Of a stretch of 64,000 bases of DNA, positions 1,115 to 61,950 are shown piece after piece. The notes beneath the pieces were generated by a model. It was given only the letters and a program-made list of their open reading frames with translations. It had not been told where the DNA came from and made no database searches. A program made the position numbers and the translations under genes. The DNA is from Escherichia coli (lineage in GTDB: Bacteria > Pseudomonadota > Gammaproteobacteria > Enterobacterales > Enterobacteriaceae): assembly GCF_050920415.1 (NCBI RefSeq), contig NZ_CP169309.1. One strand, 5' to 3'. How positions within the stretch are numbered: position 1 is the first letter of the stretch; each line of letters begins with the position of its first letter.

Positions 1115-2830
1115 TTACTCCACTTCCTGCCAGTTTTTACGCTTACTGGTTTTACCGATCCCCGGATTCATGCTGTTGGTCGGATCGTTCTCGCGATAGA
1201 ACTTCTGCAACGTCTCCGGTGCTTTATACAAATGACCGACGTTATGCTCGGCAGGGTATTGCGCGCCGCGCTGCTGTAGCAGTTCCAGCATCTGTTCTTT
1301 CAACGCATGTACATCCACGCCTTTTTTAACGATGTAATCCTGATGGAAGACATAGCACATAAAATGGCCGTAATAGAGCTTGTGCACCAACTGACTGTCG
1401 ATCTCCGGCGGTAAATGCTCATACCACTCGGTGTCGTTACGCCGCAGAGCGATATCCAGCGCCAGAATATCTTCGACTTCATCGGAATGCACCGCCTGAT
1501 AACGAATTGCTGCGCCCGCAGCGGCGAAACGGTGTAAAAACGCTTTGCTGCCTTCCTCCGGCGTACAGACAAAGAAATCGCCCTCGGCCTGTTTGAAATA
1601 ATCCACCAGCCACGATTTTGCTTCACCGACGCCATCGCCCGCCATTTTTAACAGCAGATGATGTTCATATTTATCGCGCCAGCTTTTCATGCGCGGTGGT
1701 AAATGGCTGGGGAACAGGTGACCGAATTTTTGCATCGCACGGTCGGTAAAATGCGGACGGAAGAATTTCACTTTCTCCAGCATCGCATCGGTACGTCCCT
1801 TGAGATTAAAGAAGAACGGCATCTTGTCGGTGCCTAACTTATCAATCATCAGGAAGGTGTCTTTGCCGTATTTTTCCGCAATATCGTAGATATCCCGGTG
1901 CATATATTCCCCGGCAACCGGCAGATTTTCGAAATTAGCCAGAATATGACGGCGGATTTCGGTCAGTACTTCCGGCTGGTTGGTGCCGATATAAAACACC
2001 TGCTGATTTTTTTCTGCTTCGAAGGTATCAAGACGTACCGCAAAGACGGCCAGCTTCCCGGCGCAACCAGAAGATTCAAATAACCGATCCGGATCGGCGT
2101 TATAACGTGCGGGCGTGTCGGCTTCAATATCACGAACGCGGTGGACATAGTCATAATCGTGGGCGTGACGACCATCGTGGCGCACATCGTCATCTTTGAT
2201 GCGATCGTCATCCAGCTTGCTAAGGATCTGCTCCGGCGTTTCGCCCAGATCAATCCCCAGATGGTTCACCAGCGTCAGTTTTCCATCTTCATTTATACGC
2301 GCGAATAACGACATTTCGGTATACGCCGGGCCACGCTGCACCAGCGAGCCGCCGGAGTTGTTACAAATACCGCCGATGACCGATGCGCCTATACACGATG
2401 AGCCAATCACCGAGTGCGGTTCGCGTCCCAGCGGTTTGAGGGCTTTTTCCAGCGAATAAAGCGTGGTGCCCGGATAGGCCAGCACCTGTTCGCCCTTGCC
2501 AAGAACGTGCAGCTTGTCGAGACGCAGGGTGCTGATGATCACGATATCGCGATCATAGTCGTTACCGTTTGGCGTCGAGCCTTCGGTCAGACCTGTATTG
2601 GCAGCCTGCATCAGAATAATTTTGTCGGCGGTGACGCAGGCTTTCAGCACCCGCCACAATTCCAGTAGTGAGCCAGGGAAAACGACAGCCAGCGCGTCGC
2701 CCTGACCAGAACGGAAGCCCTTGCGATAGCGGGCCGTTTTTGCGGGATCGGTGAGCAGGTGTGAATGACCGACCAGACGGGCAAGTTCATTCAAAAAGGC
2801 TTTATTATCAGTTGTTGTCATGGAAGACAT
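1115..2830 (-). CDS. dld: FAD-dependent D-lactate dehydrogenase
   Basis: ORF 1115..2863; start moved to internal ATG at 2830 (MSSMTTTDNKAFL...), giving 571 aa as recalled for K-12 Dld. Confidence 0.9.
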   Translation of the reverse strand: MSSMTTTDNKAFLNELARLVGHSHLLTDPAKTARYRKGFRSGQGDALAVVFPGSLLELWRVLKACVTADKIILMQAANTGLTEGSTPNGNDYDRDIVIISTLRLDKLHVLGKGEQVLAYPGTTLYSLEKALKPLGREPHSVIGSSCIGASVIGGICNNSGGSLVQRGPAYTEMSLFARINEDGKLTLVNHLGIDLGETPEQILSKLDDDRIKDDDVRHDGRHAHDYDYVHRVRDIEADTPARYNADPDRLFESSGCAGKLAVFAVRLDTFEAEKNQQVFYIGTNQPEVLTEIRRHILANFENLPVAGEYMHRDIYDIAEKYGKDTFLMIDKLGTDKMPFFFNLKGRTDAMLEKVKFFRPHFTDRAMQKFGHLFPSHLPPRMKSWRDKYEHHLLLKMAGDGVGEAKSWLVDYFKQAEGDFFVCTPEEGSKAFLHRFAAAGAAIRYQAVHSDEVEDILALDIALRRNDTEWYEHLPPEIDSQLVHKLYYGHFMCYVFHQDYIVKKGVDVHALKEQMLELLQQRGAQYPAEHNVGHLYKAPETLQKFYRENDPTNSMNPGIGKTSKRKNWQEVE

Positions 2831-3025
2831 TTTCCACTCCTTGTGGTGGCGAAAAAATATCACAAACTAGCATAGCGCCTTGTATGACAATTCAGCGAGT
2901 GAATATTTTGAAAATTCAGACAATAAACTGAGCATTCTTTTTCTCTCTCCATCATGCTTATGGCAAACTACGGTTTTTGCACCATTTTCGCTGCCTCGTC
3001 GGGCAACAGAGGAAGAATAATCCAT

Positions 3026-5323
3026 ATGAAATGGCTATGTTCAGTAGGTATCGCGGTGAGTCTGGCCCTGCAACCAGCACTGGCGGATGATTTATTCGGT
3101 AACCATCCATTAACGCCTGAAGCGCGTGATGCGTTCGTCACCGAACTGCTCAAGAAAATGACAGTTGATGAGAAAATTGGCCAGCTGCGCTTAATCAGCG
3201 TCGGCCCGGATAATCCGAAAGAGGCGATCCGCGAGATGATCAAAGACGGGCAGGTTGGGGCGATTTTCAACACCGTAACCCGTCAGGATATCCGCGCCAT
3301 GCAGGATCAGGTGATGGAACTGAGCCGCCTGAAAATTCCTCTCTTCTTTGCTTACGATGTGCTGCACGGTCAACGCACGGTTTTCCCGATTAGCCTCGGT
3401 CTGGCCTCGTCTTTTAACCTCGATGCGGTGAAAACGGTCGGGCGTGTCTCTGCTTATGAAGCCGCAGATGATGGCCTGAACATGACCTGGGCACCGATGG
3501 TCGATGTCTCGCGCGATCCGCGCTGGGGACGTGCTTCCGAAGGTTTTGGCGAAGATACGTATCTCACTTCGATTATGGGTAAGACCATGGTGGAAGCGAT
3601 GCAGGGTAAAAGCCCGGCAGATCGCTACTCGGTGATGACCAGCGTCAAACACTTTGCCGCTTACGGCGCGGTAGAAGGTGGTAAAGAGTACAACACCGTC
3701 GATATGAGTCCGCAGCGCCTGTTTAACGACTATATGCCGCCGTACAAAGCGGGGCTGGATGCAGGCAGCGGTGCGGTAATGGTGGCGCTGAACTCGCTGA
3801 ATGGCACGCCAGCCACCTCCGACTCCTGGCTGCTGAAAGATGTGCTGCGCGATCAGTGGGGCTTTAAAGGCATTACCGTTTCCGATCATGGCGCAATCAA
3901 AGAGCTGATTAAACATGGCACGGCGGCAGACCCGGAAGATGCGGTGCGCGTGGCACTGAAATCCGGCATCAACATGAGTATGAGCGACGAGTATTACTCG
4001 AAGTATCTGCCTGGGTTGATCAAATCCGGCAAAGTGACGATGGAAGAGCTGGATGACGCTGCCCGTCATGTACTGAACGTGAAATATGATATGGGGTTGT
4101 TTAACGACCCGTACAGCCATCTCGGTCCGAAAGAGTCTGACCCGGTGGATACCAATGCCGAAAGCCGCCTGCACCGCAAAGAAGCGCGTGAAGTGGCACG
4201 CGAAAGCCTGGTGTTGCTGAAAAACCGCCTTGAAACGCTGCCGCTGAAAAAAACGGCAACCATTGCGGTGGTAGGGCCACTGGCGGACAGCAAACGTGAC
4301 GTGATGGGCAGCTGGTCCGCAGCCGGTGTTGCCGATCAATCCGTGACCGTACTGACCGGGATTAAAAATGCCGTCGGTGAAAACGGTAAAGTGCTGTACG
4401 CCAAAGGGGCGAACGTTACCAGTGACAAAGGCATTATCGATTTCCTGAATCAGTATGAAGAGGCGGTCAAAGTCGATCCGCGTTCGCCCCAAGAGATGAT
4501 TGATGAAGCGGTGCAAACCGCGAAACAATCTGATGTGGTGGTGGCTGTGGTCGGTGAAGCTCAGGGGATGGCGCACGAGGCTTCCAGCCGTACCGATATT
4601 ACTATTCCGCAAAGCCAACGTGACTTGATTGCGGCGCTGAAAGCCACCGGTAAACCGCTGGTGCTGGTGCTGATGAACGGGCGTCCGCTGGCGCTGGTGA
4701 AAGAAGATCAGCAGGCTGATGCGATTCTGGAAACCTGGTTTGCGGGGACTGAAGGCGGTAATGCGATTGCCGATGTGTTGTTTGGCGATTACAACCCGTC
4801 GGGCAAGCTGCCGATGTCCTTCCCGCGTTCTGTCGGGCAGATCCCGGTGTACTACAGCCATCTGAATACCGGGCGTCCGTATAATGCCGACAAGCCGAAC
4901 AAATACACTTCGCGTTATTTTGATGAAGCTAACGGGGCGCTGTATCCGTTCGGCTATGGTCTGAGCTATACCACCTTCACCGTCTCTGATGTGAAACTTT
5001 CTGCGCCGACCATGAAGCGTGACGGCAAAGTGACCGCCAGTGTGCAGGTGACGAACACCGGTAAGCGCGAAGGGGCGACGGTAGTGCAGATGTACTTGCA
5101 GGATGTGACGGCTTCCATGAGTCGCCCGGTGAAGCAGCTGAAAGGCTTTGAGAAAATCACCCTGAAACCGGGCGAAACTCAGACTGTTAGCTTCCCGATC
5201 GATATTGAGGCGCTGAAGTTCTGGAATCAACAGATGAAATATGACGCCGAGCCTGGCAAATTCAATGTCTTCATCGGCACTGATTCCGCGCGCGTTAAGA
5301 AAGGCGAGTTTGAGTTGCTGTAA
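3026..5323 (+). CDS. bglX: periplasmic beta-glucosidase (GH3)
   Basis: ORF 2954..5323; start at ATG 3026 (MKWLCSVGIAVSLALQPALA signal peptide), 765 aa. Confidence 0.9.
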   Translation: MKWLCSVGIAVSLALQPALADDLFGNHPLTPEARDAFVTELLKKMTVDEKIGQLRLISVGPDNPKEAIREMIKDGQVGAIFNTVTRQDIRAMQDQVMELSRLKIPLFFAYDVLHGQRTVFPISLGLASSFNLDAVKTVGRVSAYEAADDGLNMTWAPMVDVSRDPRWGRASEGFGEDTYLTSIMGKTMVEAMQGKSPADRYSVMTSVKHFAAYGAVEGGKEYNTVDMSPQRLFNDYMPPYKAGLDAGSGAVMVALNSLNGTPATSDSWLLKDVLRDQWGFKGITVSDHGAIKELIKHGTAADPEDAVRVALKSGINMSMSDEYYSKYLPGLIKSGKVTMEELDDAARHVLNVKYDMGLFNDPYSHLGPKESDPVDTNAESRLHRKEAREVARESLVLLKNRLETLPLKKTATIAVVGPLADSKRDVMGSWSAAGVADQSVTVLTGIKNAVGENGKVLYAKGANVTSDKGIIDFLNQYEEAVKVDPRSPQEMIDEAVQTAKQSDVVVAVVGEAQGMAHEASSRTDITIPQSQRDLIAALKATGKPLVLVLMNGRPLALVKEDQQADAILETWFAGTEGGNAIADVLFGDYNPSGKLPMSFPRSVGQIPVYYSHLNTGRPYNADKPNKYTSRYFDEANGALYPFGYGLSYTTFTVSDVKLSAPTMKRDGKVTASVQVTNTGKREGATVVQMYLQDVTASMSRPVKQLKGFEKITLKPGETQTVSFPIDIEALKFWNQQMKYDAEPGKFNVFIGTDSARVKKGEFELL

Positions 5324-21516: not shown

Positions 21517-24500
21517 TTAATGGAAAATGACGTCAGGTGCGCTTAACGCTTCACTCAAATCAAACGTATCGAGTTCGGCAAAAGTGACAGATTTATTGTC
21601 ACGGTACACTCGAAGAGAACGGAAGCTCATTAGCGCTTTGCTATCAGCACTGTAGTGGTTAAAACCGGGTGAAAACTTAAGGACCAGCCGATACTCGCCC
21701 AGGTCATAGACACATGCGTCCTCAAAACCTGACTCCCAGCCTTTGTATCGCATTCCCATAAGTTGCCCAACGGTTGCGGATTTACCTTCCCAGCGAGTCA
21801 GGCTGTTACTGGCTGACTCGTCAGGTGTGAGCAGCACTGTGCGCCGCATCAACTGGCGAAAAGGCTGCATAATTTCGTAATCGGCAAAAACCTGTGCAAA
21901 TTCACTGCGCATTTCTGCTGTCATTTCTAACGGGTGGGCAATGCCAATCAGAGCATCCGCAGGCAGGTCAATTGGCTCATCTTGTGCGTTGCAGAACTCC
22001 CCCTCAGCGGCCACACGAAAGGCGTTGAGTAAACGACGCGGTTCATTTGCCGGATAAACCGCCCATATTAATCGCTGAGTAACCAGGCGAGTAAAGGGAT
22101 GATTAACAAACAGAGAATGAAAATCTGCCAGCGACCAGCGTCGGGTGGTGCGTAGGGCAGTTTCAAGACGCGGGAGCAGGTTTTTGCTCACCTGAGTGGC
22201 ATCTTTTTTTAGCCCTTTTAGTCGGGCCAGTGCCTCGGGCGCTTTCAGTTGATCGTCATCGGCGCGCAACCGGGGAACACTTTTCTGGCGAACGTTTTGC
22301 TGATCAAAGATAACCGGGTTGAGGTTTTCATCGAAGCGAACGGTAAACTGCCGGGGACCAAAATCAAATATCAACGCCTGCGGATCATCCAGGCCCAGTG
22401 TTGGGACTAATCTGTCCGCTAACTCTTCCTGGCTTAGTCCACGATTTTCTGCGACCACCTGAAGAAATTCCGCCGCGTTATCACGTAAGGGACGGGATTT
22501 CGCCCGTTGCGATATATGATGCAGCTGTATCAGTGCCATATCATTATTCATCTGAGTAAGTATATTCAGACCACTGACAGCACGGGCAGATTTGCCCTCT
22601 TGAGGCCAGGCAAGGATCTGTGTCGTCAGATTCCGAGCCGTGCTTTCGTCACCAAAGAGACTTAACGCCAAAAAAGCCCAGTTGTCTTTTGCGGGGGCGC
22701 CAGCCTGTTGCCAGGCGGTGAAGAGATCCCAGGCAAAAGCGGCCAGCGTTTGTGGCTGGCAGAACGTTTTCAGTTGTTCCAGCCCGCAATAAAAACGTCC
22801 GCCCTGGGTAAAGCGCAGCATTTCGCCAATAATTTCCAGAGCGTCATCAGTAACAGGTTGATTATTCGTGATAAGTCTCGGCCTGGACCACATTGCCGGA
22901 TGCCAGAAATCAGGGGCTTTGGGAATGCGTGCCGGGTAAATCTCTATTGGACTCTGTTTAAGTAATTGCTCCAGGGCAGGCCATACATCTGTACGCTGCC
23001 AACGATTGGCTACAGTTTGTAGCAATTCGCCATGTCCTTGTTCATACAGTAAACGCAGAGCATTGAGTGCCGCTTCGCTGTTATCGCCAGACCTGGCAAA
23101 GATTAATGGGATCAGCGCCGTAGCCGTATGCTCCGGCCATTGTAAAATCCACTGGCGAGCCAGATTACGCTGGCCCGCAAAACGATGCCAGACGCGGGCA
23201 ACGGGCAGCGCCAGTTCTGTTGCGCCAAAATGAATCAGCAGCGGAAATATCTCTTTGGGATGTCGGGCAAAGGCGGTGATTAATCCGGGCAAAGCATCGG
23301 TACCCAGCACACTTAACAGATATTCCACCCCGGTGTAATGAAAATCAGCCGCGACAATTTGTTGCCAGCACGATACTGCCATTTCGCGCGGCATTTGCGC
23401 GATAAGGTACAGATTCCACACTCCCCAACGCTTTTCATCAGTGTAATTAAATTTGCGTTGGAAAGTTCGCCACCCCTCCATCAACGCAACGCTATCTTGT
23501 GCCAGTAATGCGCTGGCGGCCTCTTCCCGGTAGTGTTTATTTTCAGTCTGTTTTGCCTGATAATTGAGCAATCTTCCTAATGAAGTATGTGTCTCTAGTT
23601 GATCGGTATCCAGAGCATCCAACTGTCCTGTGAGAATAAACTCATTAAACTTCCACCTGTGATCTTCAAAACCTAATTCCCGCAAGAAGGTATCGGTTCC
23701 TCTGCTAGCGAGACGTTCGTCAAAAGGCATGGCGCTAAAATGGCTGATTGTAGTTTGTTGTTCCTGCGTCCAGTGTTCCTGGGACGACCTGTACGCTTGC
23801 GGTACAAGCGTAAGTTCAGGTAGCGAAAAGTGAGTTATGGAAGTCTTTTTTCTGCCACGCCACGGTGGCGAAACGAGGATTTCAGGCAGACTGCTGTTAT
23901 CGGTGCTATCAATAACCGGTTTTGGCGAAGCCGATAAATAACTATTCACCACTGCCCGGGCTTGAGTACTTAACCACGGCATCACCTCTTCTGCCAGTTG
24001 TGGCTGCGATGCCATCAGCGTTTGTAACAGCGTATGCCAGTATTCATCACGTGCTTTTTGCTGTGCAGGCAGCTTTTTGTCTTCGATGATAGGATAACCA
24101 GGGCGCGCAGGGGGTTCTTTTAACGCCAGTAGTTCTGCCAGTGCGGCGAGCGTCGCATGGGGAAAGTTTTTACTGTATTTAGCCACACGTTGCAGGCTGG
24201 GTTTGTTTTTATCGGCAACTAACAGCAAGATGCGAATAACTTGCGGATGGTTAATTTGTACCAGCAGGCTACCGCAATCTTCTTTATGGGCATACATCGC
24301 GAGGCGTGGAACGGCTGCAATTCCCTGTTCGCGCAAAAGGGCGGCGCAGGCCGCGTAGCCGAAGTGGTTTTCATGCGACATGTAGCTGGCTTCGCGATCG
24401 CTAAATATATCCTGGCTCCAGTAGCGTTCGAGTTTTCTCACCGCTCTGGGGTCATTAGCAACAACTTTTAACCACTCCTTAGAATGAAAATGAGTCCGCG

Positions 24501-57516: not shown

Positions 57517-58296
57517 ATGACGATGAATTCATTCGAGCGAAGGAATAAGATCATCCAATTAGTGAATGAACAGGGAACCGTGCTTGTTCAGGATCTGGCG
57601 GGAGTATTTGCTGCCTCGGAAGCGACAATCCGTGCCGATTTGCGCTTTCTCGAACAAAAAGGCGTGGTTACGCGCTTTCATGGCGGTGCGGCGAAAATAA
57701 TGTCCGGTAATAGTGAAACCGAGACCCAGGAAGTCGGGTTTAAAGAGCGATTTCAGCTCGCCAGCGCGCCGAAAAACAGAATAGCGCAGGCGGCAGTCAA
57801 AATGATCCACGAAGGGATGACCGTTATTCTCGACAGCGGAAGTACGACAATGCTTATCGCCGAAGGTTTAATGACCGCCAAAAATATCACGGTGATTACC
57901 AACAGTCTCCCGGCGGCGTTTGCCCTTTCCGAAAATAAAGACATTACTCTGGTCGTCTGTGGTGGCACGGTCCGTCATAAAACGCGCTCGATGCATGGCT
58001 CCATTGCCGAGCGTTCATTGCAGGATATTAATGCCGATTTAATGTTTGTCGGTGCTGATGGTATTGATGCGGTTAATGGTATTACGACCTTTAATGAAGG
58101 TTATTCGATTAGCGGTGCGATGGTCACAGCCGCTAATAAAGTGATTGCCGTTCTCGATTCATCGAAATTTAACCGTCGCGGTTTTAATCAGGTACTGCCA
58201 ATCGAAAAAATTGATATTATTATTACTGATGATGCCGTGTCAGAGGTGGATAAACTGGCATTGCAGAAAACACGGGTGAAATTAATTACGGTGTAG
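57517..58296 (+). CDS. gatR: DeoR-family repressor of the gat operon (uninterrupted)
   Basis: 259-aa continuous ORF with N-terminal DeoR HTH; no IS sequence within it. Confidence 0.85.
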   Translation: MTMNSFERRNKIIQLVNEQGTVLVQDLAGVFAASEATIRADLRFLEQKGVVTRFHGGAAKIMSGNSETETQEVGFKERFQLASAPKNRIAQAAVKMIHEGMTVILDSGSTTMLIAEGLMTAKNITVITNSLPAAFALSENKDITLVVCGGTVRHKTRSMHGSIAERSLQDINADLMFVGADGIDAVNGITTFNEGYSISGAMVTAANKVIAVLDSSKFNRRGFNQVLPIEKIDIIITDDAVSEVDKLALQKTRVKLITV

Positions 58297-58307
58297 CATT
58301 GTTCTTT

Positions 58308-58342
58308 ATGCCGGATAAGGTGTGTACACCGAATCCGGCATC
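58308..58342. repeat. REP element
   Basis: gccggataaggtgtgtacaccgaatccggca palindrome between gatR and yegS. Confidence 0.7.
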
Positions 58343-58377
58343 ACTGATACTCCCTGAATTAAGAAAGGGAAATTTGA

Positions 58378-59277
58378 TTAACGCAATAATGGACAATCCG
58401 GTGGTAATCGACAGCGCAATGCTGCCGGAAGTATTTCAATATGGAAGTTTTGCCCACTCAACGGTTCGCCATCAAGATTAAAGGTAATTTCGTGTGGCGC
58501 TTGTATATCGAACCACGCCGAAGCACCTTCGATAATATTCGGGTTATCTTCGTCAGATTTTAAGGTTGATACGAGAGCCGGAAGAATTTCATCGCCGGTG
58601 AAAATGCGTAGTTGCAGCAAGCCGTCGTTAATTAATGCGTTCGGGCACAATTGCTGACCGCCACCTGCCTGACGGCCGTTACCAATACCAATGACTAGTG
58701 CGTCACCTTGCCAGTGAAAGTTTTCACCGCGGATTTCACAACGGTCCGGTTGCAGTGTATCCATGCGCATTAAGCCGTGAATGATGTAAGAGACGCCACC
58801 CAGCGCTGCTTTTAATTTTTCCGGCGTTTCTGTGGTAATACGTGTCCCAAACCCACCCGTTGCCATATTAATAAAACAGGTTTGTTTGTTGACCTGCGCC
58901 ATATCAATCGCAATAGCGTCACCAGCAATTGCTAGTTTCAGCGCCTTATCCAGTGCCTCAGGTATACCCACGCTGGTCGCGAAATCGTTCGCTGTACCTA
59001 GTGGCAAAATCCCCAGCGCGGGTATGTCATCGCCCTCACACTGAATCAGCGCCGAGGAAACTTCATTAATAGTGCCATCGCCACCACCGGCAATTACCGT
59101 TGCGACGCCCAGCTTCCGGGCCTCTTCTACAAATCGGGCGGCATCGCCTTTCTCCCAGGTGACCCGCACATGGATCGTCATTCCTTCCTCGCGCAACAGC
59201 ATAATTGCTTCGCGCAAGGGTTGATTGTCAGTACTTTTGCCGTTAAGAATCAGTAAGCTGGCGGGAAATTCTGCCAT
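58378..59277 (-). CDS. yegS: lipid kinase (DAGK catalytic-domain family)
   Basis: 299 aa; translation matches recalled YegS. Confidence 0.85.
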
Positions 59278-59759
59278 AATCGTATGCCTTTATGATTGGT
59301 CTGTAGATAGTGTAGAGCAGAAAAGAAAAGGCGGAGTCAGAACAGGATGAAAATCGGAGGATAAAAAATCAGTTCAAGGATGGGGAATTCAGTGGTTACC
59401 AGTAAGGGGGGCAACGGTACACTCGGTTTTTATCGGCATAAATGATCACTGAAAGCACTTAAGCATTATTTTACTGTGGATTCAGCGTGGCAGCGAACAT
59501 TAACGGTAATCAGGGACAAACTTCAAAAGAGCATATGCATCATATTCAACAAAGCAATGGCATCCTCAATGTACGATTCCAATTATATTAAATAATTCCT
59601 ATGAGGTTATCTGTGATAGGCCTCCATGTCTGTATTTCCTACTTATGTAGGAAATTCTGCACAAAACATTTATTATAATCCTATTCAATAATGACAATGA
59701 TGTCATTATTATATTTCAACACTAGAGAGTGTCGTTGGTGTTTAATGGGGGAAGGTGAG

Positions 59760-60077
59760 ATGAAAAAGACAGCTGCTATATCATTAATTAGTGTTTTTCT
59801 TATGTCTGGTTGTGCTGTGCATAATGATGAGACAAGTATCGGTAAATTCGGTCTTGCCTATAAAAGTAATATCCAGCGTAAACTCGATAACCAATACTAC
59901 ACTGAAGCCGAAGCATCTTTAGCCAGGGGCAGAATATCTGGTGCGGAAAATATAGTGAAAAATGATGCAGCTAATTTCTGTGTTACTCAGGGCAAAAAAA
60001 TGCAGATAGTTAACCTGAAGACTGAAGGGGCAGGATTACATGGCGTCGCGCGTCTGACATTCAAATGTGGAGAGTGA
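59760..60077 (+). CDS. yegR: small lipoprotein, 105 aa
   Basis: ORF 59691..60077; start at ATG 59760 (MKKTAAISLISVFLMSGC, lipobox MSGC). Confidence 0.75.
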   Translation: MKKTAAISLISVFLMSGCAVHNDETSIGKFGLAYKSNIQRKLDNQYYTEAEASLARGRISGAENIVKNDAANFCVTQGKKMQIVNLKTEGAGLHGVARLTFKCGE

Positions 60078-60417
60078 GAATAGATTCAAGACTACCATGG
60101 ACACATCCATTTTTATCTCTGATAAGGTATTCTTCAACACCATTATTGAATGTGAGTAATAATGACAAGCAGATAGATGAAACTACAGCAGAATTTTTAT
60201 TTTATGCGGCTATCAGAAAATGATGGCATAAATATTCCTATGCTTTAGCTTCATTTTTTGTAAGCGTCAAACATGCGCGTTCTGGGTGTGCGTAGCCGGA
60301 CCCTGTGCGAGCACGATGCCGTTAAGTGAAAGGCATCGTGCTATGAAGGGGGATTCTATCGATGTGGTCAATGGAAGACGGTCACCTGGGATCAATCCGT
60401 CTCTATGGTTTATGCAT

Positions 60418-60504
60418 AAAAAATAAGCCCGTGTAAGGGAGATTACACAGGCTAAGGAGGTGGTTCCTGGTACAGCTAGCATTTTATGGGTTATGTTTTT
60501 CAGC
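60418..60504 (-). ncRNA. cyaR: CyaR (RyeE) Hfq-dependent sRNA
   Basis: Reverse complement of 60418..60504 reads gctgaaaaacataacccataaaatgctagctgtaccaggaaccacctccttagcctgtgtaatctcccttacacgggcttatttttt, matching recalled CyaR including its terminator hairpin and U-tail. Confidence 0.85.
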
Positions 60505-60588
60505 GAAACGGATGATAACCTTAATAAATGCAGCTGTATGTGATCGGTTTCTAAGAATTTTCCATCCGGGAAAAATAATCGAAATTAA

Positions 60589-61950
60589 TCACTTACCGTG
60601 GGGGTTACGCGTGGTTTCCCCGGAGAAATTTCGCATCAGCAGCGCGTAATTTAGCTCAAGATCCTGCGGGACCGGGATCCACACAGTATAACCATCGCCA
60701 GGTGCGACCGGCATTGCTTCGCCTTTGGCGTTTTCCATATGCTCAAGGGTAAAGTTAATGTTCCCTTGCGGCGTCATCAGCTCAAGGCTGTCGCCAACGG
60801 AGAATTTATTTTTCACCGCTACCGCCGCGAGGTCGCCCTTGCGCTCACCGGTAAACTCACCAACAAACTGCTGGCGGTCAGAAACTGAATAACCGTATTC
60901 GTAGTTCTGATAATCGTCGTGAGTATGACGACGCAGGAAACCTTCGGTATAGCCACGATGCGCCAGACCTTCCAGAGTTTCCAGCAGGCTGGTATCGAAT
61001 GGTTTTCCCGCAGCTGCGTCATCGATAGCTTTACGGTAAACCTGCGCGGTGCGTGCGCAATAGTAGAAAGATTTTGTACGACCTTCGATTTTCAGCGAAT
61101 GCACGCCCATTTTGGTCAGGCGTTCAACGTGGGCGATAGCGCGCAGATCTTTCGAGTTCATGATGTAAGTGCCGTGCTCATCTTCAAACGCGGTCATATA
61201 CTCGCCCGGACGCTGAGCTTCTTCGATCATAAACACTTTGTCGGTTGGCGCGCCGATACCCAGCGTCGGCTCAACATTTTGCACCGGAATCGGCTCGTAC
61301 TTGTGCACGATGTTGCCAACGTCATCTTCTTTCCCTTCCTGGACGTTGTACTCCCAGCGGCAGGCGTTGGTGCAGGTGCCCTGGTTCGGGTCGCGCTTGT
61401 TGATATAGCCAGAGAGCAGGCAGCGACCGGAGTAGGCCATGCACAGCGCGCCGTGAACGAAGATCTCTACCTCCATATCCGGCACCTGATTGCGGATCTC
61501 TTCAATCTCTTCCAGCGACAGCTCGCGAGAGAGGATCACGCGGGTCAGGCCCATTTGCTGCCAGAATTTCACCGTCGCCCAGTTCACGGCGTTAGCCTGT
61601 ACCGAGAGATGGATCGGCATTTCAGGGAAGTGCTCACGCACCAGCATAATCAGCCCTGGATCGGACATTATTAGCGCATCCGGCCCCATTTCCACCACCG
61701 GTTTCAGGTCACGGATAAAGGTTTTCAGCTTGGCGTTGTGCGGTGCAATGTTGACCACAACATAAAACTTTTTCCCCAGCGCGTGGGCTTCATTAATGCC
61801 GAGCTGAAGATTTTCGTGGTTGAATTCGTTGTTGCGCACACGCAGGGAGTAACGCGGCTGGCCCGCATAAACAGCATCTGCGCCATAAGCGAAAGCGTAA
61901 CGCATATTTTTCAGCGTTCCCGCCGGGGAAAGGAGTTCCGGTTTAAACAT
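60589..61950 (-). CDS. yegQ: U32-family peptidase-like protein (implicated in 23S rRNA C2501 hydroxylation)
   Basis: 453 aa; translation matches recalled YegQ. Confidence 0.85.
   Translation of the reverse strand: MFKPELLSPAGTLKNMRYAFAYGADAVYAGQPRYSLRVRNNEFNHENLQLGINEAHALGKKFYVVVNIAPHNAKLKTFIRDLKPVVEMGPDALIMSDPGLIMLVREHFPEMPIHLSVQANAVNWATVKFWQQMGLTRVILSRELSLEEIEEIRNQVPDMEVEIFVHGALCMAYSGRCLLSGYINKRDPNQGTCTNACRWEYNVQEGKEDDVGNIVHKYEPIPVQNVEPTLGIGAPTDKVFMIEEAQRPGEYMTAFEDEHGTYIMNSKDLRAIAHVERLTKMGVHSLKIEGRTKSFYYCARTAQVYRKAIDDAAAGKPFDTSLLETLEGLAHRGYTEGFLRRHTHDDYQNYEYGYSVSDRQQFVGEFTGERKGDLAAVAVKNKFSVGDSLELMTPQGNINFTLEHMENAKGEAMPVAPGDGYTVWIPVPQDLELNYALLMRNFSGETTRNPHGK

Follow-up and report, generated by a model that had tools for sequence, protein, structure and literature searches.

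The DNA considered here is a 64-kb window (64,000 nucleotides of contig NZ_CP169309.1) from a strain of Escherichia coli other than K-12, and the element in question is the 482-bp gap between its divergent genes yegS and yegR, together with the inserted DNA of which the gap forms part. The local order is gatD, an intact gatR, yegS (minus strand), the gap, yegR (plus strand), a further 340 bp, cyaR (minus strand) and yegQ/trhP (60589-61950, minus strand). At 37.8% GC against 50.1% for the whole window, the gap is equalled in AT-richness by 2.6% of 482-bp windows, and its yegR-proximal 264 bp (59496-59759), with 33.7% GC, fall in the lowest 0.7% of windows. A sequence-only reading had described 59278-59759 as an AT-rich gap of 482 bp; its coordinates are exact, and the two AT-rich strings that it quoted are present in one copy each, at 59704-59722 and 59671-59712. 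Its remark that the gap has no assigned feature is true of annotation, the identical RefSeq genome and the MC4100 and MG1655 records all leaving it blank, and fails for the literature, in which EvgA, H-NS and RpoD binding are reported for the K-12 orthologue. Likewise, its failure to find a convincing open reading frame (ORF) stands, the longest in the gap having 41 aa and none being conserved. What it missed is the main structural fact, namely that the greater part of the gap forms the left end of an islet derived from a prophage.

Most likely, three features of ordinary kinds make up the gap: a native promoter, the scar of a prophage attachment site and, in acquired DNA, a promoter under H-NS and EvgA control. 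Its middle part, 59363-59505 (~143 bp), is very probably, to judge from alignments, a non-functional remnant of the left attachment (att) site, a scar of a P2-type (Peduovirus) element which had entered the genome at the 3' end of cyaR. The coordinates of the features are collected in Table 1.

Table 1. Features of the yegS-yegR-cyaR region, observed or proposed, in window coordinates.
Feature	Position	Strand	Basis or remark
yegS	58378-59277	-	gene call
yegS-yegR gap	59278-59759		482 bp between divergent yegS (-) and yegR (+)
Ancestral cyaR-yegS spacer with yegS promoter and 5' untranslated region (UTR)	59278-59362 (85 bp)	-	alignment to yegR-less relatives
Predicted yegS -10, TACACT	59309-59314	-	K-12 transcription start site (TSS) transferred by sequence
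Probable decayed attL copy of the 27-bp P2/cyaR att core	59363-59389	.	18/27; AAAAAATCAGTTCAAGGATGGGGAATT vs AAAAAATAAGCCCGTGTAAGGGAGATT
P2-type P' arm remnant	59390-59505	.	blastn and alignment to P2
Cox-binding region equivalent	~59406-59476	.	82% identity to P2
69-bp piece missing from K-12-type alleles	~59412-59480		within P' arm remnant
int stop-codon equivalent	59466-59468	-	alignment to P2
Final ~10 codons of int, with putative, degenerate Int repeats of the P' arm (TGTGGAtt...cGTGGcAg)	59474-59505		alignment to P2
AT-rich islet DNA, yegR regulatory region	59506-59759 (254 bp)	+	composition; H-NS/RNA polymerase binding by K-12 orthology
EvgA box, 18-bp inverted repeat TTCCTACTTATGTAGGAA	59636-59653	+	15/16 to TTCYTACANNTGTARGAA
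Candidate yegR -10 elements	TATAAT 59674-59679; overlapping TCCTAT 59679-59684	+	
5' UTR hairpins	59687-59710 and 59717-59735	+	folding
yegR ribosome-binding site (RBS) GGAAGGTGAG	59750-59759	+	
yegR	59760-60077	+	105-aa lipoprotein, PF27694, signal MKKTAAISLISVFLMSGC; sole intact gene between att remnants
P2-type P arm remnant	60359-60417	.	alignment to P2 and P2-like prophage attR
Int arm-site equivalent	60359-60386		TCGATGTGGTCAATGG...; 24/27 aligned positions, 2 gaps
Integration host factor (IHF) site equivalent	~60387-60417		with 4-bp deletion
Intact 27-bp P2 att core, 3' half of cyaR terminator	60418-60444	.	exact match, one in window
cyaR	60421-60506	-	Rfam CyaR, 100.7 bits

Probable attachment-site remnants on both sides of yegR

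Both ends of the inserted DNA were compared with the attP features of phage P2 (AF063097), namely the ogr terminator, the Int P-arm site, the IHF site, the core (annotated at 24356-24382), the Cox-binding region, the int stop codon and the Int P'-arm site. At the left end, the core-like sequence aligns exactly with the cyaR terminator and core position of genomes without yegR; the DNA on its yegS side is ancestral spacer, and that on its other side aligns with a phage arm rather than with the body of cyaR. A match of at least 18/27 to the core is reached at 3 of 127,948 window positions, the true core among them (binomial P 3e-5). Being degenerate, this copy is a relic and not a usable att site.

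The adjoining P' arm is 82% identical to P2 784-865, and the block within it that is additional relative to K-12 matches the int-proximal end of P2-like prophages in 39 other E. coli genomes with 84% identity over 70 bp (blastn, E 2e-10, 28 Gb), lying in those 39 genomes at the 3' end of a gene annotated as 'site-specific integrase'. Since shuffled sequences reach 72% identity in global alignments, that measure was dropped as a significance test in favour of local alignment scores set against shuffles. By this standard, the homology of the P' side to P2 is observed at a score of 83 (shuffles 14.3 +/- 2.1; 0/1000 reach it; z 32), and the core copy with the next 22 nt scores 22 (shuffles 12.3 +/- 2.2; 4/1000 reach it). 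The tandem P'-arm Int repeats of P2, TGTGGACA twice over, would correspond to TGTGGATTCAGCGTGGCAG at 59476-59494, the first retaining 6/8 positions and the second being degenerate and displaced by a 6-bp insertion.

At the right end, the att site in cyaR, which we take to be the classical P2 site locI, is intact, and the P arm with the exact core stands on the far side of the inserted DNA as the partner attR. Taken alone, the P arm reaches a local score of 33 against P2 (shuffles 13.8 +/- 2.2; 0/1000 reach it; z 8.6). Moreover, cyaR is a listed P2-type integration site (PMC3032704, Table 2), and the att site is already known for K-12. A complete P2-like prophage occupies the cyaR core directly downstream of yegR in strain 50579417, where the order is yegR, ~170 bp, core AAAAAATAAGCCCGTGTAAGGGAGATT, P' arm, int stop, C, cox ... 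D, ogr, core, cyaR.

With the attP of phage P2 and with prophages at the cyaR site, the islet has in common the 27-bp core, intact at cyaR, the chromosomal site, and a layout of P arm (Int and IHF sites), core, Cox-binding P' arm and int 3' end with putative Int arm repeats. It differs from a P2 prophage in having neither integrase nor any other phage gene, in its degenerate left core, and in its interior, which is ~870 bp of AT-rich DNA with one lipoprotein gene. A functional P2-like prophage was considered and rejected, as tblastn with Int, C, Cox, D and Ogr gave nothing significant between the att sites and only yegR is intact.

Where P2 and P2-like prophages have the ogr terminator, immediately to the left of what remains of the P arm, there is a hairpin with a 14-bp stem and no T-run (60310-60342, AGCACGATGCCGTT...AAAGGCATCGTGCT), which is kept in K-12 and in strain 50579417.

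Empty sites, parallel islets and decay of the scar

A scan for YegS in one genome per species returned 57 loci. At ~30 of these, all from Enterobacteriaceae, the order yegQ>cyaR>yegS is observed without yegR and with the cyaR end 77-110 bp from the yegS ATG, that is, with an uninterrupted attB; they include E. whittamii, 'E. coli E69', Escherichia sp. E1V33, Klebsiella, Enterobacter, Atlantibacter, C. koseri, Phytobacter and Lelliottia, and three Escherichia lineages are among them. The 85 bp next to yegS in the window can be aligned to the short spacer between the cyaR terminator and yegS in yegR-less Escherichia, C. koseri and Enterobacter, and weakly to that of Klebsiella; they are 95% identical to K-12. 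Neither the yegR-less Escherichia nor any other genus has yegR at this locus. The empty site of the outgroups and the alignment of arms and cores identify 59363-60417 (1,055 bp, 39% GC) as an insertion with attL-like and attR-like ends, and the empty site, combined with the P arm and intact core beside cyaR, suggests that yegR arrived inside a P2-like element.

P2-type elements have landed repeatedly at the junction between the cyaR 3' end and yegS, in Escherichia as in Enterobacter. E. albertii NBRC 107761 (L016 541-4001) has there an islet of 3.46 kb with cdtA (1520-2296), cdtB (2293-3102) and cdtC (3117-3662), a P2-like P' arm that lacks int and, 87 bp from the yegS ATG, a second core matching at 25/27 positions. 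As in the present window, the site is the same and a second core and a P' arm without int are preserved, whereas the cargo is the cdtABC toxin genes instead of yegR, the core is nearly intact and its arm has a different breakpoint. In E. cloacae DSM 26481 (L053) and E. hormaechei (L063), an insert of ~2 kb (~2010-4001) carries a second core of 23/27, 78 bp before the yegS ATG. In all three species, the second copy stands at the same distance from yegS as the decayed copy in the window. Larger cyaR-yegS gaps with no clear second core occur in C. amalonaticus (L017), Citrobacter sp. (L024), S. diarizonae (L030), Kluyvera (L036) and E. mori (L044).

K-12 records a further event at the same place. 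The ogrK-yegZ P2 remnant, which in K-12 lies between yegR and cyaR, is absent from this window. In K-12 MC4100, a P-arm remnant of ~59 bp and part of the core are present twice, after yegR and again after ogrK (L002 3729-3899 and 4448-4613), and these two copies imply two successive P2-type integrations, the annotated PR-X remnant being the younger. The annotation of the cryptic prophage PR-X in K-12 (ogrK-yegZ, 2167183-2167811) stops at yegZ and omits yegR and the gap, and its ogrK-D' piece is the remnant of a second event of later date, lodged at the intact core. The scar, and the placing of yegR inside an older P2-type islet beyond PR-X, appear to be unannotated in the records examined.

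Megablast searches against 5,426 complete E. coli genomes show that almost every one has the ~124 bp adjoining yegS, at ~93% identity, and that the full 482-bp gap occurs in 22, human isolates and avian pathogenic E. coli (APEC) O78 strains among these; in the other E. coli the gap measures ~405-413 bp and is ~85% identical. Aligned to K-12, the window has an extra block of ~69 bp and a further 9 bp. At the nucleotide level, its yegS and yegR are 92.8% and 93.4% identical to K-12, compared with 98.3% and 97.5% between K-12 and X14-3, and its yegQ is 97.4% identical. The whole yegS-gap-yegR segment (58378-60077) is a rare, divergent haplotype.

A third form of the locus is found in L012, a divergent genome of the E. 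coli clade with a YegR of 91% identity, a core version of 19/27 and a different arm deletion. K-12-type alleles, L012 and the window retain different, overlapping subsets of the arm, a pattern consistent with a single ancestral arm from which pieces were lost separately, through neutral decay. Even the shortened K-12 gap reaches a local score of 22 against P2 (shuffles 13.9 +/- 2.0; 5/1000 reach it), and the near-undetectable state of the scar in K-12 may explain why it has no annotation there.

The core copy has diverged far more than its flanks, the window and L012 (~3889-3915) agreeing at ~14/27 positions of it and differing by <10% in the flanks, and the copies of E. albertii and E. cloacae differ from the core at the P'-proximal end only. 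The faster divergence of the copy could reflect selection immobilising the islet or repeated exchange with later P2-like phages at the same site.

On the far side of yegR, directly 3' of its stop codon, lie 176 bp of AT-rich DNA (60078-60253, 32% GC) that are absent from K-12 and from strain 50579417 and are found in 947 of the 5,426 genomes at ~90% identity. This segment and the region upstream of yegR share short direct and inverted repeats, AATAATGACAA (59687 and 60158) and TATATTTCAACAC / TATTCTTCAACAC.

Probable promoters on the two sides of the gap and the possible origin of yegR

On the yegS side, the K-12 TSS of yegS has been mapped with 4 reads to 2166709, 27 nt upstream of the ATG, and the sequence above it ends in ...GCTCTACACTATCTACA (PMC3415461 supplement). 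That upstream sequence (GCTCTACACTATCTACA) is conserved in the window, and transfer of the K-12 position would put the yegS TSS here at ~59302, inside the ancestral spacer, with a 25-nt leader and the Shine-Dalgarno sequence AAAGG. The -35 element is poor, and the native yegS promoter is weak. In species without yegR, the yegS promoter must fit into the same spacer of ~77-110 bp, unless yegS is read through from cyaR.

Just upstream of the yegR start, a sigma-70-like site, ACGACA-16-TATAAT (10/12), points leftward on the minus strand toward yegS (59735->59708); it is kept in K-12 and adjoins Shimada's predicted 'yegS' promoter. If active, this candidate would give yegS a leader of ~420 nt, antisense to the yegR 5' UTR. 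Beyond yegS, gatR (57517-58296) is intact and encodes 259 aa, in contrast to the K-12 gatR, which is split by IS3. Between gatR and yegS, a palindrome resembling repetitive extragenic palindromic (REP) elements (58301-58370) gives a sub-threshold Rfam naRNA4 match (33 bits vs a gathering score of 59.5).

In the yegR-proximal 254 bp, neither P2 int (z 1.9) nor any of the proteins of int, C, cox, D and ogr finds a significant match. This stretch holds the sole match of at least 14/16 in the 64-kb window to TTCYTACANNTGTARGAA, a pattern that we take to be the EvgA consensus and that was tested on K-12 target regions. At the same threshold, 31 kb of K-12 DNA gave matches only upstream of emrK/evgA, frc (16/16), yfdX/ypdI, safA, ydeP and yegR. 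The half-sites of the box in the gap are kept in K-12, in X14-3 and in the divergent L012, its centre being variable. Furthermore, a hexamer TC[CT][TCG][ACT]T is observed exactly 25 nt after the EvgA box at safA, ydeP, emrK, frc, yfdX and yegR. From this spacing, the yegR TSS would lie at ~59686-59692, giving a 5' UTR of ~70 nt that starts with the 59687-59710 hairpin.

This arrangement agrees with what is reported for K-12, in which EvgA and H-NS control is already known. Binding of EvgA to the promoter of yegR is stated in a review (PMC8147483), yegR is induced 11.9-fold along with ydeO, yfdX and emrK (PMC5811628), yegR and yfdE share a common regulatory 'fiber' (PMC8265036), and the K-12 yegR<>yegS spacer binds RpoD holoenzyme and H-NS in genomic systematic evolution of ligands by exponential enrichment (SELEX; PMC3946193). 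Transferred to the present allele, the K-12 start site and the RpoD, H-NS and EvgA binding would assign the same functions to its gap.

Like the EvgA promoters of ydeP, safA-ydeO, yfdX, frc and emrKY, the yegR promoter combines the TTCYTACANNTGTARGAA repeat with the hexamer 25 nt downstream, and all lie in AT-rich DNA that is in several cases H-NS-marked. The yegR box differs in standing in prophage-derived DNA, in a central TTAT that is off consensus at one position, and in a perfect TATAAT that overlaps the hexamer. The region also resembles H-NS-silenced xenogeneic DNA in its low GC content, horizontal origin, H-NS binding of the K-12 spacer and missing yegR TSS in standard culture, and it combines 33.7% GC with being an insertion relative to the outgroups; it is unlike such DNA in having no high-affinity motif, and its occupancy is here extrapolated from K-12.

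Several suggestions of the sequence-only reading can be placed against these results. A complex promoter is borne out for the K-12 orthologue by RpoD holoenzyme SELEX, the mapped yegS TSS and the reported EvgA binding, and the EvgA box can now be located in this allele; binding by H-NS is upheld for the same orthologue by genomic SELEX. IHF finds no consensus site in the gap, and the IHF site of the P2 att region maps to the other arm, at ~60387-60417. The TSS maps it proposed as a check were consulted through one K-12 list (PMC3415461 supplement), which contains a start for yegS and none for yegR.

As to yegR itself, the mechanical ORF 59691-60077 begins 23 codons before the yegR start and is the form used by a public protein call of 128 aa (P0001); a start at 59760 is supported by the lipoprotein signal and by the RBS GGAAGGTGAG. 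Outside E. coli and Shigella, the family PF27694 is all but absent. Searches with the gap and YegR against 50,697 phage records (blastn, tblastn) returned only a 'partial genome' prophage record containing host yegR-yegS-gatR and a chromosomal 'phage TP' fragment. An IMG/VR scan with YegR gave 80 loci, all of E. coli yegR and mostly at or near the end of the stored locus, where host flank is expected, and is uninformative on the question of cargo. YegR also has two distant homologues (48-52% identity) whose surroundings are unrelated, IS-rich for one and chromosomal for the other; they support mobility and not a link to P2. The 52% homologue, in Enterobacter sp. BIDMC 29 (L067 5001-5318), is surrounded by IS3, IS110 and Tn3 sequences and lies by an omptin and an MFS transporter. 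The 48% homologue (L070 5001-5321) is a singleton with a UDG-family gene upstream, 2-hydroxyacid dehydrogenase and formate dehydrogenase genes downstream, and dnaG ~4 kb further upstream.

Competing explanations and biological meaning

The account judged likely would run as follows. The 85 bp beside yegS would be the spacer that once lay between the cyaR terminator and yegS, with its weak native promoter. A P2-type element would have integrated at the cyaR 3' end, leaving a scar at the yegS side and a P arm with core at the cyaR side, and the DNA between the att remnants, comprising yegR and the AT-rich 254 bp, would have come with that element or have entered it afterwards. The scar would since have decayed by independent deletions, the window being a rare allele that keeps a recognisable 69 bp. 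The AT-rich yegR-proximal DNA, as xenogeneic DNA, would be silenced by H-NS under standard conditions, and the acid-responsive EvgA would bind 59636-59653 and drive a promoter whose -35 is poor and whose -10 lies at 59674-59684.

A number of observations weigh against parts of this account. The core copy matches at just 18/27 positions and, without the A6T run, at 11/20 (P 0.009), which is weak taken alone. A tblastn comparison of P2-like Int, C, Cox, D and Ogr with 59200-60520 gave nothing significant, and yegR occurs in no bona fide phage genome, the hits in phage databases and IMG/VR being prophage calls with host flank; the argument for yegR as cargo would therefore be its position between the two att remnants. 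On the regulatory side, the gap has no H-NS high-affinity motif, and the one K-12 TSS list consulted has no start for yegR, an absence that silencing under standard conditions would also account for. All data on binding and on TSSs come from K-12, whose spacer is ~84-95% identical; the yegR promoter predicted there from SELEX, TAAACA-18-TATATT, was tried and rejected here, being disrupted by a substitution and the 9-bp indel; and any evgAS genes of this strain would lie outside the 64-kb window. A further-reaching view, put forward tentatively and with the balance of judgement somewhat on the other side, makes yegR the only passenger left from an ancient P2-type element that entered the 3' end of cyaR in the E. 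coli lineage, since fixed and wired into the EvgA acid-response regulon.

Among the competing explanations, a recent import of the ~59412-59480 block into a rare haplotype, for instance by a P2-like phage at the degenerate site that was later deleted, would fit both the presence of the block in just 22 of 5,426 genomes and an unusually divergent haplotype (yegS 92.8% vs K-12) compatible with recombination from another lineage. It is nevertheless unlikely, because K-12-type alleles keep both flanks of the block in P2 register (the start of the P' arm and the end GCGAA[TC]A.TAACGG), L012 retains a different internal piece, as expected of one ancestral arm with separate deletions, the K-12 gap is itself above shuffles in its match to P2 (5/1000), and the block is 79-84% identical to present phages rather than near-identical. 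A long native divergent promoter region bound by H-NS, IHF and Fis, with no mobile-element history, would account for the AT-rich composition and for the H-NS and RpoD binding seen by SELEX in K-12. We regard it as highly improbable, given that the empty site in the outgroups makes all but ~85 bp an insertion, that homology to both P2 att arms is significant, and that scans of the gap for IHF, Fis and H-NS motifs gave counts at or below chance.

The two remaining explanations would have the gap encode an RNA or a small protein. The sequence-only reading had suggested an unannotated small RNA, and this or a structured cis-regulatory RNA might draw on the three hairpins or palindromes upstream of yegR (59634-59655, 59687-59710 and 59717-59735), the minus-strand fold of the whole gap (z = -1.99) and the conserved leftward ACGACA-16-TATAAT at 59735->59708. 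The suggestion found no support and is very unlikely to be right: Rfam 15 at E<=10 on both strands is empty in the gap, with CyaR at 60421-60506 as positive control and the weak REP/naRNA4 match, also outside the gap, as the sole other hit; folding is not significant on either strand (plus-strand z -0.92); the cyaR terminator is the sole terminator-like site found, none lying in the gap; promoter-like matches stand at shuffle level (6 vs 4.7 +/- 2.5); the strongest palindrome is accounted for as the EvgA box and that at 59687-59710 is lost in L012; and the middle of the gap decays by independent deletions. Still harder to credit is a small protein from one of the ORFs of 21-39 aa that do exist at 59380-59445, 59476-59595 or 59487-59591 (plus strand) or 59599-59706 (minus strand), whose frames are broken or absent in K-12-type alleles through the 69-bp and 9-bp indels, which start inside the scar, and of which those of 39 and 34 aa begin within the block missing from most E. 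coli; none is annotated in MG1655 (NC_000913.3), a record that lists the very small EvgL and YpdK.

The division of the gap into native promoter, att scar and acquired promoter does not overturn current understanding, and offers a concrete annotation for a stretch that is blank in genome records. It predicts the positions of EvgA and RNA polymerase at yegR, and it marks a neutral scar that should be deletable without regulatory effect. At the level of the site, PR-X of K-12 is suggested to be just the youngest layer, beside an older and decayed P2-type islet with yegR. At the level of the gene, yegR, an uncharacterised and E. coli-restricted lipoprotein gene of the EvgA acid regulon, appears to be cargo delivered by a prophage rather than a native gene.

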